Sequence record: PQ488502.1
Length of the DNA: 64,000 nucleotides
From: Escherichia phage BUCT632
Strand: one strand, 5' to 3'
The notes beneath the pieces are model-generated. The model did not search any database and was not told the DNA's origin. It saw only the letters and a list, made by a program, of their open reading frames with translations. The position numbers and the translations under genes are program-made. Numbering within the stretch: position 1 is the stretch's first letter; the number at the start of each line of letters is the position of its first letter. This document shows, one piece after another, positions 3,880-30,515 of the stretch.

Positions 3880-4395
3880 ATGGCTAAGCAGAAAACCGCA
3901 AAAACTCAAGCAGCTCCGGCAGTTAAAACTTTCCCGCAGACCGAGGCTAATCGCAAAGCTCGTCTGGAACGCCACCTGCGTAAGCATCCTACCGATGCTC
4001 AGGCTGCTCAAGCACTGAATAATCCGGCTCCGATTCGTCAGAAGCCTAAGGCTAAAAATGCCACACGTCAATTCTACAAAATGGTTATGTATGTAGAAAA
4101 TTACGGCCACAAATCTGTCCCAGTTTCCCTGAGCTTCAACGCTGGGGCTGAATTGTTCTCTCGTAATGGTATGTCTATGAAAGACTATGAAAAGGCAGTT
4201 AACCAGAAGCGTAAACCAACAGCAGATGTATTGCGTGATACTCGTGGACAGTTTGGCTCTGTTAAACCAAATATCTTTGGCGTAGAGTATAGTAAAGATA
4301 ATGTTCGTGCTCTGTGTTACGGTGTAGGCATTAAGTTCACGGGTGATTCTGCTCGTAAATCTGCTAAACCAGCTCGTAAGCGTAAAGCGAAGTAA
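3880..4395 (+). CDS. Hypothetical lysine/arginine-rich protein (possible nucleic-acid binding)
   Basis: 171-aa ORF with basic N- and C-termini; followed by hairpin AGGGGC-GAAA-GCCCCT at 4405-4420. Confidence 0.5.
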   Translation: MAKQKTAKTQAAPAVKTFPQTEANRKARLERHLRKHPTDAQAAQALNNPAPIRQKPKAKNATRQFYKMVMYVENYGHKSVPVSLSFNAGAELFSRNGMSMKDYEKAVNQKRKPTADVLRDTRGQFGSVKPNIFGVEYSKDNVRALCYGVGIKFTGDSARKSAKPARKRKAK

Positions 4396-4436: not shown

Positions 4437-4673
4437 ATGCGTAATTTTGTAGCAAAGAATGATTTTAACCGTGCTAGCACTCATAAGTCCGCTAGAGATT
4501 ACACGCGACTTTCTAGTCATGAGGTAATGGACACCTGTTATGAAGAGCTGGAAGGTAGCTGGAATGAATGGCCCGACTTCTCTATGGAAGAGAACTGGGA
4601 TGTCAGTGAGGATATGCTTCCTGGTTTTAAAGACCCCAAGAAGTGGGAGTCTATTAAAGAGACAGCTCTTTAA
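4437..4673 (+). CDS. Hypothetical acidic protein
   Basis: 78-aa ORF in gene array. Confidence 0.35.
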   Translation: MRNFVAKNDFNRASTHKSARDYTRLSSHEVMDTCYEELEGSWNEWPDFSMEENWDVSEDMLPGFKDPKKWESIKETAL

Positions 4674-4701
4674 TAGTTTTCTACACAATAAAGGATAAGT
4701 T

Positions 4702-5403
4702 ATGAAAGTAAAACCATTTGGTATGCTAGATATTGAATCTCTAGGAACTCCAGGAGATTGTGGTACTACTCATATCGCAATGCCTTCATTCGCTTTTGTA
4801 GCTATGCATGGAATTGATAAAGACCCTGGTCTAGTATTTGTTACTTTGGATGTACAAGATCAGCTTAATTCTGGTGCTAAAGTTACAGCGTCTACTCTAG
4901 CATTCTGGATGGATCAAGCTAAGCATAGCCCGTCTGCTATCCACATTATGGAAGCTATGAACGAGCGTAATCCAAAGCTGATTGCATTCCAAAACGGTAA
5001 ACATCATTGTACTAGTAAACTCGGCTCTAACTATGCTGCCTACTCTAAGGCCCAAAATATTATGGAGTTGGCTCTAGGCGATAATGCTTTGTATTATGGC
5101 AACGGCCCAGAGTTCGATATGACTATCTACTCTGCAAACACTTTCCATGCTGGAACCAATGAAGAAATAGTTCCGTGGAAATTCTGGAACTTGGGTAATG
5201 TTCGATCTCTTCGTAATCTCTGGATGCAAACTGGCTATAGTTATAAAGCTCTAGAAACCGAAGCTATTAGCTGGGCAATAGCTAAAATGGAGAAAATGGA
5301 CACTATTCGTTATGGGATCTATCCGGTTAAGCATGATCCAGCATTCGATGCCTTAGTTGAGAGCTATTGTGTTGCAGCTATGATCGAAAAAATGAAAATT
5401 TGA
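4702..5403 (+). CDS. Hypothetical protein
   Basis: 233-aa ORF with RBS AAAGGA upstream; N-terminal MLDIESLG could be a DEDD-like exonuclease motif (weak). Confidence 0.5.
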   Translation: MKVKPFGMLDIESLGTPGDCGTTHIAMPSFAFVAMHGIDKDPGLVFVTLDVQDQLNSGAKVTASTLAFWMDQAKHSPSAIHIMEAMNERNPKLIAFQNGKHHCTSKLGSNYAAYSKAQNIMELALGDNALYYGNGPEFDMTIYSANTFHAGTNEEIVPWKFWNLGNVRSLRNLWMQTGYSYKALETEAISWAIAKMEKMDTIRYGIYPVKHDPAFDALVESYCVAAMIEKMKI

Positions 5404-5709: not shown

Positions 5710-6348
5710 ATGACTACTCGTATTTCTAAAACTCGCGCTCTGGCAACTATCAAATCTCTGGAAGCTAAAATCCGTAAAGCTACTGAACAACAGCTTCTGA
5801 TCGCTGTTGGTGAAGGTAAGGATAAAAATAAGGTTGTAGTTGGCGCTGCAATCGAAGTAGATGACCTGTCTACCCGTATTAAGACTGATTTCCAATCTCT
5901 GCTGGATATGATGTCCCAGCGTGATCGTATCAAAGCTGCTCTGATTAAGAGCAATGCAGAAACAATCGTTGAGATTGGTTCTCGTAAAATGACTGTTGCG
6001 GAAGCAATTGAAGCTAAGCGTTCTATGGAGCTTAAAGCTCAACTGCTGGCTAACATGCGTAAGCAGTTCCATGCCGCTACGGTTAAGTTTAATACGCAGA
6101 AAGCACAGTTTGATGCTAAATATGAGCGTTTGCAGGATAGCATGGCTACCCGCGATAAGAAAACTTCCGAAGATGAAGTTAAAATGCAGCTCAACCTGCT
6201 GGAACTCAAGAATACTCCATTCTTGATTGATCCTCTGGAACTGGAGAAGCTGATTAAGCAGCATGACGAGGAATACCAGGACTTTGCAACAAATGTTGAC
6301 TTTGTTCTGTCCGAGTCTAACGCTTCTACCTTCATTGAAGTAGAGTAA
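5710..6348 (+). CDS. Hypothetical coiled-coil protein
   Basis: 212-aa ORF with RBS AAGGAAG; antisense ORF 5677..6390 judged spurious. Confidence 0.55.
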   Translation: MTTRISKTRALATIKSLEAKIRKATEQQLLIAVGEGKDKNKVVVGAAIEVDDLSTRIKTDFQSLLDMMSQRDRIKAALIKSNAETIVEIGSRKMTVAEAIEAKRSMELKAQLLANMRKQFHAATVKFNTQKAQFDAKYERLQDSMATRDKKTSEDEVKMQLNLLELKNTPFLIDPLELEKLIKQHDEEYQDFATNVDFVLSESNASTFIEVE

Positions 6349-6731
6349 TAATTTAAAAGCTAGTAAATCGGTAGACGAAAGCCCAAGCATCTTACCTCGC
6401 AGCAGCGGTTGAAATACGAGGTTAAATAAGACCGCTGACCATACTATAAAGTATAATCTATTGGAGATTATGTTTATTACACCAGCCTTTTAAGCTGACA
6501 CGTAAGAACAAAGCGTCGTTGATATTACCGACACAACTTCAAAGATAAACATTTAAGTATGAAAGCTGAAAAGTTTAAAGAACTCAAACTTCTAAACTTC
6601 TAAAGCTAAAAGATGCAAAGTATTCGTTGATGATTCAAACCCTAGATCAAAGGTACATGGCTCATAAGATATGGCCTGTGGCGCCTCTAGGCTGTTTATC
6701 GGTTTACTAGTTTCACAATTTAAAAATGTAT

Positions 6732-8289: not shown

Positions 8290-9079
8290 TAAATTAGGGA
8301 ACAGCGAGCCGATTACGCTGAGTGCAGAATCCCAACCGGAGCGCATTGAATAGAGTCGGTGGGTTAGTTGTAAAACTAGTACACAGGGGGCGGCAATCCC
8401 GGTTAGTGGCTAGAACGTGTAAAATGAGGCGTCTGAAACCTCTCCCCTAAACTCTTCTCTAATTTATAAATAGTGGGGTGTGGAAATCACTTATGTAGTA
8501 ACACTGCCGTCCTAGTATAATTGGTATTATCAAGCCGTAACTGGTGGAAGATGTAGGTTCGAATCCTACGGTCGGTAAGAACTGGATAACTGATGCTTTT
8601 AACGTAAAAGCTTCCGAGGTTAGTTGCGCACTGCCTAAACCACGCGGTAGTTGGTTCCAGACTAACCAACCAGTCTGCTGAATAGTTTTATTACGATTTA
8701 ACTATGTCCAGGCTAAAGAAGAACTTTAGAAGGTATTCTAGGATAGTGAAGTTCTTTCTCCATATCGGAGTAGTTTTTCAAGCTATCCACAAAGTGGGAA
8801 ATGCTGACATGAGAGATGTCACTAATGGTGCACAATAGCACAGGTAATTCGCGATAACTCCTGTTGAGTAGCAGCAAAAGGCGGGAAGTCATGACCCCAA
8901 GCCTAACCGAGTCCTCAATATACCGCAGGATATAACCACTAAGTCACCCTGACTTAAACTGGAAAATAATAGACGTTACCGTATTTTGTCTTGAAATACT
9001 TAATGAGTGAGACTTATGACTCTCCCGGTATCGTCTGTATTTTTAAGAGTTTTTACGAGAGTTCTTAAAAATACTTAAA
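8290..9079 (+). ncRNA. Promoter-driven ORF-free region; candidate structured non-coding RNA(s) or degenerate tRNA
   Basis: no plus-strand ORF of 60 aa or more; T-arm-like hairpin GTAGG-TTCGAAT-CCTAC at 8553-8569 with acceptor-like pairing 8506-8512/8570-8576 but no anticodon arm; several local hairpins. Confidence 0.3.
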
Positions 9080-12789: not shown

Positions 12790-12867
12790 GGTTCTCAAGC
12801 TCATATGGTATGAGCACCCGGCTCATAACCGGAAGGTACGTAGGTTCGAATCCTCGGGGAGCCACCA
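12790..12867 (+). tRNA. tRNA with CAU anticodon (Met or Ile2)
   Basis: acceptor GGTTCTC/GGGAGCC with G-U pairs, D-arm GCTC-ATATGGTAT-GAGC, anticodon loop CTCATAA, T-loop TTCGAAT, CCA. Confidence 0.65.
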
Positions 12868-13081: not shown

Positions 13082-13158
13082 GGGGGTGTAATCGAATTGG
13101 CATAGGTACTGGACTTAAAATTCAGGTTTTGTGGGTTCGAATCCCACCACCCCTACCA
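13082..13158 (+). tRNA. tRNA with UAA anticodon (Leu by anticodon) and short variable arm
   Basis: acceptor GGGGGTG/CACCCCT, anticodon arm CTGGA-CTTAAAA-TTCAG, T-arm GTGGG-TTCGAAT-CCCAC, A73, CCA. Confidence 0.6.
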
Positions 13159-14095: not shown

Positions 14096-14176
14096 GGGGG
14101 ATTGGCTCAGCGGCGACGGCGCCTGGCTGTAGACCGGGTATATCACGCGGAGGTTCGAGTCCTCCATCCCCCACCA
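14096..14176 (+). tRNA. tRNA-Tyr (anticodon GUA), type II
   Basis: acceptor GGGGGAT/ATCCCCC, anticodon arm CCTGG-CTGTAGA-CCGGG, long variable arm, T-arm GGAGG-TTCGAGT-CCTCC, CCA. Confidence 0.7.
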
Positions 14177-15553: not shown

Positions 15554-15635
15554 GGGTCGTTAGCCAAGCGGTTTGGCGGCGGATTGTTAATCCGTGTCGA
15601 AAGACAACGTAGGTTCGAATCCTACACGGCCCGCC
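15554..15635 (+). tRNA. tRNA with GUU anticodon (Asn) and unusually long variable arm
   Basis: acceptor GGGTCGT/ACGGCCC, anticodon arm GCGGA-TTGTTAA-TCCGT, 13-nt variable arm GTC-GAAA-GAC, T-arm GTAGG-TTCGAAT-CCTAC, G73, CCA. Confidence 0.6.
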
Positions 15636-15738
15636 AAATTCTGTGTAGAGTTAAGTAAACCGGTAGCCAATCAGCTATCATTGCTGACATCGAATTCAGC
15701 CACAGATACCATTTTCATTAATAACTGAGGAAACAAGC

Positions 15739-17715: not shown

Positions 17716-17794
17716 GGGGAATGGGTCTGCATGGAGTGGACACCTCGCTTGCACCGAGGACATCAGAACGGTTCGATTCCGTTATTCTCCACCA
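17716..17794 (+). tRNA. tRNA-Ala (anticodon UGC)
   Basis: acceptor GGGGAAT/ATTCTCC, anticodon arm CCTCG-CTTGCAC-CGAGG, T-arm AACGG-TTCGATT-CCGTT, CCA. Confidence 0.75.
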
Positions 17795-17799
17795 AATAC

Positions 17800-17876
17800 G
17801 CGTGATTGATGGAATTGGCATACATACCGTCCTTAGAAGTCGGGTTTTGAGGGTTCGAATCCCTTGTCACGCACCA
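17800..17876 (+). tRNA. tRNA with UAG anticodon (Leu by anticodon) and short variable arm
   Basis: acceptor GCGTGAT/GTCACGC, anticodon arm CCGTC-CTTAGAA-GTCGG, T-arm GAGGG-TTCGAAT-CCCTT, A73, CCA. Confidence 0.55.
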
Positions 17877-18459: not shown

Positions 18460-18549
18460 AGAAGATAGGACGTAGTGGTATGTAACTGGTCTTGAAAACC
18501 AGCCCGCTGTAGTGATACGGTGATGGTTCGACTCCATTATCTTCTGCCA
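18460..18549 (+). tRNA. tRNA-Ser (anticodon UGA), type II
   Basis: acceptor AGAAGAT/ATCTTCT, anticodon arm CTGGT-CTTGAAA-ACCAG, long variable arm, T-arm GATGG-TTCGACT-CCATT, CCA. Confidence 0.75.
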
Positions 18550-20075: not shown

Positions 20076-20099
20076 TCCCGTTGAAATAACGGGTTTTTG
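20076..20099 (+). terminator. Rho-independent terminator
   Basis: CCCGTT-GAAATA-ACGGG hairpin followed by TTTTT. Confidence 0.7.
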
Positions 20100-20173
20100 C
20101 TCCTAAAGCATTGTTGGCGATGCAGTTGCCTTGTAAGCATCTGAACCGGGTTCGATTCCTGGTGGGAGCACCA
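20099..20173 (+). tRNA. tRNA-Thr (anticodon UGU)
   Basis: acceptor GCTCCTA/TGGGAGC, D-arm GCAT-TGTTGGCG-ATGC, anticodon loop CTTGTAA, T-arm CCGGG-TTCGATT-CCTGG, CCA. Confidence 0.7.
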
Positions 20174-30028: not shown

Positions 30029-30137
30029 ACTTATATAAATTGATGAGAGACATTAATATGATTATGTCACATATCTTTGTATGGATTTTAGTCATATTAA
30101 TGGCTTTCTTTGTCCTTCAAGAAATAGGAGTATTACG

Positions 30138-30515
30138 ATGAACTATGCATATCTTATTATTAATAATAATGTAGTTTGTGGTACTCGCGCCGTTGAGATG
30201 GGTATTACAGAAGAAAAGTATAAGTCACTTCCAGAAAAGGAACAACAATATTATGTTGAAGAAGCTGCTTGGGAATATGCTGATGTTTATCCCGAACAAC
30301 GTGAAGATCGCGTTACTATTGTTGTTTCTTTGGGGTTGGTTGGCTGTGATACCGAAGTTGATACAGACCTAGAGACTTTAGAAGAATGGGGAGAATTAGA
30401 CATTTTAGCTAAAAACTCTTTAATCCGTGAGGCTTTTTGGGAAGCAGTTGACTGCCATGTTGTCTTTGAGCCTAACGATGAGGAAGCTGAGAAGCATACT
30501 AATCACTGGAGATAA
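30138..30515 (+). CDS. Hypothetical acidic protein
   Basis: ORF from ATG 30138 with GGAG RBS. Confidence 0.4.
   Translation: MNYAYLIINNNVVCGTRAVEMGITEEKYKSLPEKEQQYYVEEAAWEYADVYPEQREDRVTIVVSLGLVGCDTEVDTDLETLEEWGELDILAKNSLIREAFWEAVDCHVVFEPNDEEAEKHTNHWR

Follow-up and report, generated by a model that had tools for sequence, protein, structure and literature searches.

The window analysed here, a 64,000-nucleotide stretch of Escherichia phage BUCT632 (sequence record PQ488502.1), contains a transfer RNA (tRNA) gene with the asparagine anticodon GUU whose variable region folds into a hairpin of its own. Long variable arms are, by the textbook rule, confined to the tRNAs for Leu, Ser, bacterial Tyr and Sec. 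This rule is broken by a conserved and covarying arm on an asparagine tRNA, in a form that is widespread in phages, near absent from cells and unaltered in its anticodon arm. We are highly confident that the gene encodes a functional, Asn-decoding tRNA and that it belongs to an old, phage-enriched family with a selected extra helix. The best explanation overall, which we find about evenly balanced between belief and doubt, is that of a functional tRNA-Asn on a class-II-like scaffold whose arm would block host tRNA nucleases. The gene itself is already known, being annotated in hundreds of records, and the tRNA-Asn of phage T5 has been used experimentally. The class II architecture, the conserved covarying family across many phage lineages and the same architecture in the T5 tRNA-Thr(UGU) appear to be unreported; no description of a long-arm tRNA-Asn was found in the full-text literature searched, an early remark being possible in the T5 tRNA sequencing papers of the 1980s.

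The gene was recognised by ARAGORN and by the Rfam tRNA model RF00005. The Rfam match spans positions 15554-15633 and the whole model (positions 1-71 of 71), and its score of 58.4 bits (E about 1e-10 to 1e-12) exceeds the gathering score of 29. Both place the loop UUGUUAA and the anticodon GUU in the same register, and the Rfam alignment accommodates a 10-nt insertion in the variable region. The minimum free energy (MFE) fold is a cloverleaf with a fifth hairpin (-33.9 kcal/mol; z = -3.1 against shuffles), and the elements that define a tRNA are all found, namely a 7-bp acceptor stem, a D arm, a 5-bp anticodon stem closing a 7-nt loop that has U33 and a purine at 37, and a T arm containing GTTCRA. 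With its own stem-loop and a length above the 10 nt that mark class II, the variable arm (GUCGAAAGACAAC) is of class II form; the anticodon is not that of a class II isotype (Leu, Ser, Tyr or Sec), and the class I shape typical of tRNA-Asn, with a variable loop of 4 to 5 nt, a 4-bp D stem and U1-A72, is absent. The core shows A9 and a D stem GCC(A)/(U)GGC with a 7-nt loop, the class II core feature being a 3-bp D stem, an enlarged loop and G9.

An earlier, sequence-only reading had described an Asn (GUU) tRNA with the loop TTGTTAA and a 13-nt variable arm containing GTC-GAAA-GAC, and ARAGORN, RF00005 and the MFE fold all bear this out. Covariance-model folding could have overturned the register or the arm length; RF00005 returned the same register and a long variable region. 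That reading had placed the gene at 15554-15635, of which the start stands and the end moves one base further, the CCA end being at 15636. Three other interpretations were considered and rejected. An alternative anticodon register giving GUA or a short variable loop was found neither by the covariance model nor by ARAGORN, which concur; an intron or mobile insertion is contradicted by the extra sequence, which is only 10 nt long and covaries as a helix; and a pseudogene is excluded by the gene's perfect cloverleaf, its encoded CCA and its conservation. A scan for promoters and terminators and a listing of open reading frames around the gene gave nothing informative.

The 800 bp surrounding the gene are 97 to 100% identical to T5-like Salmonella and Escherichia phages (Demerecviridae) such as GSP044, Stokescottia and T5_ev212, whose records annotate the gene as tRNA-Asn. 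The T5 copy has three differences from the window, the compensatory change of C28-G42 (window) to U28-A42 (T5) in the anticodon stem and U32C, and its variable arm is identical. Every Demerecviridae relative examined bears the arm, Tequintavirus among them, and blastn with the 83-nt query matched 637 of 50,697 phage records. Representatives were fetched and refolded from Proteus phage PM135 (Novosibvirus), Providencia phage PR1 (Priunavirus), Salmonella phage bobsandoy (Epseptimavirus), Klebsiella phages KPV15 (Jiaodavirus, T4-like) and Potts1 (Marfavirus), Escherichia phage KKP3954 (Phapecoctavirus) and Pseudomonas phages phiHQ and U5 (Phikzvirus). All were found to be tRNA-Asn(GUU) of 83 to 87 nt with G73 and a variable-region hairpin, the helix occurring in the compensatory variants GUC/GAC, GUUC/GAAC, GUUC/GGAC, AUCC/GGAU, GUCA/UGAC and GGC/GCC.

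A long-arm pattern, defined by a spacing of 16 to 24 nt from the Asn anticodon arm to the T loop, was further matched in at least 120 IMG/VR contigs of uncultured viruses, and pooling these with the phage records gave 111 distinct long-arm sequences. The hairpin is folded by 107 of them, usually with a stem of 3 to 4 bp; GNRA loops are present in 68% (GAAA in 56 sequences), and the mean arm energy is -3.58 kcal/mol compared with -0.62 for shuffles. When 15 diverse members were aligned with MAFFT, each of the four variable-stem pairs varied on both sides and 96.7% of cells were paired; these members were picked for 4-bp stems, so that the paired fraction is partly circular and the diversity of pair types is not. 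All seven acceptor pairs covary among relatives as well. A family covariance model (R1) run over 100 loci matched every kind of tRNA (249 matches) and served only as a structural aligner followed by a filter for GUU rows; among the 67 distinct rows so aligned, the three inner variable-stem pairs each use four to six pair types. Because the hairpin is conserved with compensatory changes in relatives, it is not a product of chance, and the alignments indicate that the helix of the variable arm is under selection. A 3-bp D stem with a D loop of 9 to 11 nt occurs in 52 of 92 family members, G9 being common, and the T arm of the window recurs in PR1, in phiKZ-like and in several metagenomic members. 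The family of long-arm tRNA-Asn is old and spreads by horizontal transfer among phages and mobile tRNA arrays.

Bacterial Asn identity consists of the anticodon GUU and G73, which can be transplanted into another tRNA (PMC9976931), and the window tRNA has both. G73 is a determinant of Asn and Ser, A73 is required by Tyr and Leu, and Tyr additionally requires U35 (PMC9976931). Neither the GUA anticodon nor the A73 of tRNA-Tyr is found in the window tRNA-Asn. Within the family, 102 of 111 sequences have G73 and 77 of 111 have U1, in line with the short Asn tRNAs of the same data, where Tyr and Leu tRNAs have A73. The arm does resemble that of bacterial class II tRNA-Tyr, which is likewise short (about 13 nt), pairs over 3 bp and leaves 3 nt unpaired on the 3' side, and G34 and U35 are shared; tRNA-Tyr differs in A36 and in its essential A73. 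This Tyr-like geometry prevails among the long-arm tRNAs, with stems of 3 to 4 bp and, in 82 of 107, 3 to 4 unpaired 3' nt, whereas Tyr arms in the same phages favour UUCG-type loops over the GNRA loops favoured by the Asn arms.

The tRNA body was also examined with home-made hidden Markov models trained on 2,400 ARAGORN tRNAs, which reach a cross-validation accuracy of 63% when the anticodon arm is removed. With the anticodon alone masked, Asn scored best for 61 of 109 long-arm Asn tRNAs, a biased result since both search patterns had fixed the anticodon arm; with anticodon and variable arms removed (n = 108), the assignments were incoherent (Cys 24, Asn 24, Leu 14, Ser 13, Tyr 4). The classifier thus tied the scaffold to no isotype, and it clearly did not favour Tyr; its result was used only to reject a Tyr origin. 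The suggestion that the gene might be a recently altered tRNA, one base away from Tyr, is thus rejected: it has G73 and not A73, the combination of arm, GUU and G73 recurs across at least five phage lineages and 111 distinct sequences, Tyr is the top score for only 4 of 108 bodies, and the window has a separate tRNA-Tyr(GUA) with A73 at 14096-14176. The companion suggestion of an atypical Asn tRNA gains support from GUU and G73 and from the membership of the T5 orthologue in a three-tRNA rescue set (PMC12409363). The premise of both, a restriction of long arms to Leu, Ser and Tyr, is valid in cellular genomes and fails for phages, where they occur on Asn and on other isotypes.

The frequency of the arm was estimated from a scan that used the Asn anticodon arm alone, with any arm length, and yielded 120 viral contigs. 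The long-arm set already contained twelve of them, and the 98 Asn genes that were new included 2 long ones, so that the long-arm share of the sampled viral tRNA-Asn is about 12% (about 14 of 120), rising to about 25% at loci with at least four tRNAs. Across 185,579 bacterial and archaeal species (one genome each, 596 Gb) the long-arm pattern matched 33 times, against a chance expectation of about 40 by our own arithmetic; about half of the matches were not tRNA-Asn or were short, and about 16 are real. Most of the real ones belong to arrays with 10 to 36 tRNA genes (Micromonospora, Verrucosispora and several contigs of metagenome-assembled genomes (MAGs)), which is a mobile or phage-type organisation, and some of these arrays carry a normal short tRNA-Asn too. 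In 5,426 E. coli genomes searched by blastn no copy of the long-arm tRNA-Asn was found; the matches were limited to 29-nt stretches of the T arm, and the gene is not a copy recently derived from the host. The long-arm tRNA-Asn is strongly phage-enriched and not phage-exclusive.

The host counterpart, E. coli tRNA-Asn (asnT/U/V/W, 76 nt), whose sequence was verified in 5,425 of the 5,426 genomes, shares with the window tRNA the anticodon GUU, G73, an identical anticodon stem (GCGGA/UCCGU), the UUCGA T loop and the encoded CCA, and presumably the same synthetase and codons. The sole difference in the anticodon arm is C32U. Elsewhere the molecules are unrelated. In the host tRNA the variable loop is AUGUC (5 nt), U1 pairs with A72 and a 4-bp D stem closes the loop AGUCGGUA (U16, C17), whereas the window tRNA has the 13-nt hairpin arm, G1-C72, C16 and no position 17. 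Overall, 48 of 84 aligned positions are identical and blastn similarity is confined to the T arm.

This comparison bears on AriB, the effector of PARIS, for which E. coli tRNA-Asn is a secondary target cut between residues 40 and 41, U36AAUC|C41 (Belukhina 2025, PMC12409363). The window tRNA retains this context, U36-A-A-U-C40|C41. In the predicted AriB complex the dimer's second subunit lies opposite nucleotides 16-17 of the D loop, and U16C impairs cleavage; near-complete rescue from PARIS toxicity needs co-expression of the T5 Lys, Thr(UGU) and Asn tRNAs; and cleavage did not return when T5 tRNA-Lys was given the E. coli anticodon stem-loop (PMC12409363), from which it follows that elements outside the stem-loop matter to AriB. 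Given a host-identical anticodon stem with UAAUC|C, any resistance of the phage tRNA-Asn must lie elsewhere, in C16 or in the variable arm. The word 'variable' does not occur in PMC12409363, in PMC11464382 (Burman 2024) or in PMC10264068 (van den Berg 2023). T5 tRNA-Lys(UUU) offers a close parallel, being likewise a phage copy of an AriB-targeted host tRNA, a member of the same rescue trio and a carrier of C16 (Burman 2024, PMC11464382; Belukhina 2025, PMC12409363). Its resistance has been shown experimentally and maps to U39A, A41C and U16C on a normal class I shape, whereas the tRNA-Asn keeps the host anticodon stem and adds an arm instead. The window allele differs from the T5 tRNA-Asn of the rescue experiment at 28:42 and 32.

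The favoured explanation is that host asparaginyl-tRNA synthetase (AsnRS) would charge the window tRNA with asparagine, because GUU and G73 are kept, and that synthetase, EF-Tu and ribosome would still accept the armed molecule. The short, stable, GNRA-capped hairpin would probably act as a change of shape that hinders host tRNA nucleases, AriB, with its cut at 40|41 and its second subunit on the D loop, being the best documented candidate. Evasion, with AriB as the candidate, seems to us the likeliest purpose of the arm because the anticodon arm has not diverged from that of the host, because AriB reads outside the stem-loop and because of a coincidence in T5. Its two out-of-class armed tRNAs, Asn(GUU) and Thr(UGU), are its two non-Lys AriB targets in the rescue set. 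Given some 18 class I tRNAs, both armed ones would fall among the three targets with a probability of about 3 in 153, a rough, post hoc figure that serves as a lead and not as a test. The armed Thr(UGU) is an 87-nt tRNA of class II shape, detected by blastn in 107 phage records including T5_ev212, where it sits between Gln-Gln-Gly genes and Ile and Met genes. Its D stem of 3 bp carries an 11-nt loop, its arm reads A-GGA-GUAA-UCC-CGUU, and the AriB site U36AAUC|A41 is preserved. In the arm-length table of the fetched loci, long arms were seen on 10 of 71 distinct phage Thr(UGU) sequences, two of them from T5-like contigs.

Several points weigh against the evasion reading. Class IIb synthetases approach the tRNA from the variable-loop side, as in AspRS-tRNA complexes, and compatibility with AsnRS is assumed. 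The window phage has a short Thr(UGU), so that the pairing of armed Thr with armed Asn is not universal. Phage tRNAs for Ile(UAU), Cys, Trp and Glu, none of them a known AriB target, also bear long arms, and on Lys(UUU) such arms are rare; evasion, if it is the reason for the arm, would therefore not be specific to PARIS. A few long-arm tRNA-Asn genes lie in ordinary chromosomal neighbourhoods (L255, L256 and L248), which means that the arm can exist without a phage setting. The authors of the rescue experiments allow that overexpressed phage tRNAs may merely replenish the pool or compete (PMC12409363), and a T5-like phage tRNA-Asn gave no rescue of infection from PrrC170 (PMC11555353).

The arm may instead be a neutral or structural legacy, a class II core having been gained a single time, through an insertion or through recombination with a class II tRNA in a phage array, with no role in defence; this is a possible account that we nevertheless doubt. 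The hairpin would then be kept since without it the co-adapted core, with its 3-bp D stem, its enlarged D loop and G9, would misfold, or to stabilise an under-modified bulk tRNA. Class-II-type D arms with G9 in about half of the long-arm Asn tRNAs indicate such a core, identical D and T arms in distant phages fit one origin followed by transfer, and the long arms of several other phage isotypes and the rare chromosomal copies are in keeping with it; the covariation, for its part, demonstrates selection on a helix and no particular function. What a legacy leaves unexplained is the commonness of the arm in phages and arrays against its near absence from the housekeeping sets of 185,579 species, and the fact that the two armed tRNAs of T5 are exactly the two non-Lys AriB targets.

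Variable arms are classic handles for protein recognition, for example by SerRS and bacterial TyrRS (PMC9976931), and the arm could serve a partner other than a nuclease: a modifying, repair or processing enzyme of phage or host, or a mark that tells phage from host tRNA during degradation of host tRNAs. A metagenomic long-arm tRNA-Asn (L243) does adjoin a phage-type RNA ligase. Such a role seems improbable to us, as the family spans unrelated groups (siphoviruses, T4-like and phiKZ-like myoviruses) with no shared phage partner identified, the stem sequence is free to vary, and the generic GNRA loop is also typical of phage Ser and Leu arms.

Identity switching would mean that the body dictates charging and that Ser or Tyr is inserted at Asn codons. 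Serylation is said, after Himeno in 1990, to be governed by arm length and orientation. The same is stated in PMC9976931, where Ser identity rests on the long arm, aided by G73 and by G1-C72/G2-C71, and SerRS disregards the anticodon. Arms of phage tRNA-Ser have stems of 4 to 8 bp and, in 120 of 126, 0 to 2 unpaired 3' nt; those of phage tRNA-Leu mostly have 2. Nematode nev-tRNAs are reported to be class II tRNAs with anticodons other than those of Leu, Ser or Tyr that retain Leu or Ser body identity and mistranslate. Like nev-tRNAs and allo-tRNAs (Mukai 2017, PMC5389517), the window tRNA combines a long arm with the anticodon of an amino acid normally served by class I tRNAs, and allo-tRNAs occur in phage tRNA clusters as well. 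They differ from it in that allo-tRNAs have an 8/4 or 9/3 acceptor/T geometry where the window tRNA has the normal 7/5, and in that both kinds keep a Leu or Ser body identity and mistranslate, whereas the window tRNA has determinants of Asn type together with an arm that is too short for SerRS and has the wrong orientation for it. Recoding is very unlikely: G73, G1-C72, G2-C71 and C11-G24 of the window tRNA are all among the E. coli determinants for Ser, and a few metagenomic GUU tRNAs have Ser-like arms (L238, L239, L244 and L209), but the 3-bp arm with 3 unpaired 3' nt is unlike phage Ser arms, including the 19-nt arms of the window's own tRNA-Ser, Tyr requires A73, most family members have the U1 of normal tRNA-Asn, and the T5 tRNA-Asn aids growth when host tRNA-Asn is depleted (PMC12409363), which is hard to square with systematic Asn-to-Ser mistranslation. 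Mischarging of the window tRNA with Ser is accordingly unlikely.

Evasion of nucleases by the armed tRNA-Asn might be one instance of something broader. Phages and mobile tRNA arrays may systematically rebuild class I tRNAs in class II shape (Asn(GUU) most commonly, and Thr(UGU), Cys, Trp, Glu and Ile(UAU) too, tRNA-Leu conversely losing its arm) as a general anti-defence strategy, in which the altered silhouette would stop shape-reading nucleases such as AriB from docking and leave synthetase identity intact; we put this forward tentatively. The evasion reading provides a testable account of how T5 tRNA-Asn and tRNA-Thr(UGU) might neutralise PARIS despite keeping the AriB site, a question left open in the published work. 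Phage tRNAs may evade immunity through overall shape besides substitutions in the anticodon loop, and, if this is true, shape would constitute a second route of tRNA-based immune evasion, separate from the point mutations in the anticodon loop reported to date. A variable arm on the substrate of a class IIb synthetase is presumably acceptable to AsnRS, EF-Tu and the ribosome, a property useful for engineering orthogonal or nuclease-resistant tRNAs. For annotation, the length and shape of a tRNA are no guide to its isotype in phage genomes.

Table 1. Positions of the window tRNA-Asn and its parts, and of armed tRNAs of other isotypes at the fetched loci (L numbers)
Feature	Positions	Strand	Source or remark
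Complete tRNA-Asn(GUU) gene, 83 nt including encoded CCA	15554..15636	+	ARAGORN; Rfam RF00005; cloverleaf MFE
Acceptor stem, 5' strand GGGUCGU (G1-C72, G2-C71, G3-C70, U4-G69 ...)	15554..15560, partner strand 15626-15632	+	ARAGORN bracket output
D arm GCCA-AGCGGUU-UGGC	15563..15577	+	Stem 3 to 4 bp, loop 7 nt, C16, without position 17
Anticodon arm GCGGA-UUGUUAA-UCCGU	15579..15595	+	
Anticodon GTT (Asn; AAC and AAU codons)	15586..15588	+	ARAGORN and Rfam model
Variable region, 13 nt	15596..15608	+	Hairpin GUC-GAAA-GAC 15596-15605, then unpaired AAC 15606-15608
GNRA tetraloop (GAAA) of the variable hairpin	15599-15602	+	
T arm GUAGG-UUCGAAU-CCUAC	15609..15625	+	
Discriminator G73	15633	+	ARAGORN bracket output
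Armed tRNA-Thr(UGU)	L271 1501-1587; L019 4406-4492; L082 8998-9084		L271 copy = T5_ev212 30133-30219
Long tRNA-Ile(UAU), examples	L026 1697-1792; L050 7444-7538; L116 12394-12488; L236 9324-9417; L247 5454-5546		
Armed tRNA-Cys	L046 345-428; L047 13818-13901; L048 1324-1407		
Armed tRNA-Trp	L051 4387-4473; L113 8187-8273		
Armed tRNA-Lys(UUU)	L247 4198-4287; L128 9623-9710		

Among the other armed isotypes, 17 of 28 distinct phage tRNA-Ile(UAU) sequences are 91 to 99 nt long, with a variable region of 21 to 27 nt and a hairpin loop carrying a conserved CAGAUUAG or CAGAUAA motif, which looks like a separate, sequence-specific family of arms. Three-bp arms of GNRA type were seen on phage tRNAs for Cys (7 of 65), Trp (5 of 73), Glu(UUC) (5 of 75) and Lys(UUU) (2 of 72). 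Such tRNAs often share contigs with a long-arm tRNA-Asn, and one locus (L048) has armed Thr, Cys, Ile(GAU) and Asn together. The tRNA-Thr(UGU) of the window (20099-20173) is 75 nt long, with a short variable loop and an irregular anticodon stem, and is a different allele in the genomic slot of the armed Thr(UGU) of T5.

The three long-arm tRNA-Asn genes in chromosomal surroundings come from MAGs. That of a Solirubrobacteraceae (L255, about 4050-4132) adjoins dgt-dnaG / dnaG and an HD phosphohydrolase, that of a Devosia (L256, about 2414-2497) lies near ChaC and an ABC ATPase and has a tRNA-Leu-like 5' half, and that of a Caulobacteraceae (L248, about 6272-6358) lies near an M24 peptidase. The GUU tRNAs with Ser-like arms, all with G73, a stem of 6 to 7 bp and 1 unpaired 3' nt, belong to arrays of 32 to 36 tRNAs (L238 1207-1296, L239 1920-2009 and L244 7704-7793, from Micromonospora and Verrucosispora chromosomes, and L209 6795-6883); the D arm of the last is tRNA-Ser-like (GGCCGAGUGGUUUAAGGC), and these four are candidates for ambiguous Asn/Ser charging. 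On the contig labelled 'uncultured archaeon' (L243), the long-arm tRNA-Asn (4626-4710) is near the RNA ligase (1744-2787; PF09414, PF21189) and a dCMP deaminase, and the contig is probably that of a phage with tRNA-repair capacity beside the tRNA. An 87-nt tRNA-Asn at the end of an Azoarcus contig (L268 114-200) owes its length to an 11-nt tandem duplication in the variable region (CCGUAGGUCAU-CCGUAGGUCCC); this tRNA is probably an artefact of assembly or mutation that does not belong to the family.

ARAGORN found 22 tRNAs in all, at about 9 to 21 kb of the window. Two tRNAs detected by Rfam are absent from its list (8506-8577, 35.5 bits; 12790-12864, 40.3 bits), and two of its own, Ala(UGC) at 17716-17794 and Ser(UGA) at 18460-18549, are absent from the Rfam list at the gathering score. 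The window tRNA-Tyr(GUA) is 81 nt long and has a variable region of 9 to 10 nt (UAUAUCACGC) without a convincing hairpin; the antidote reported for retron-Eco7 PtuAB is a tRNA-Tyr of T5 type (PMC11555353). The two tRNA-Leu genes (UAA at 13082-13158 and UAG at 17800-17876; A73) are only 77 nt long, have no long variable arm and represent the opposite class switch, and across the fetched phage loci 79 distinct short-armed tRNA-Leu sequences were counted beside 105 long-armed ones.

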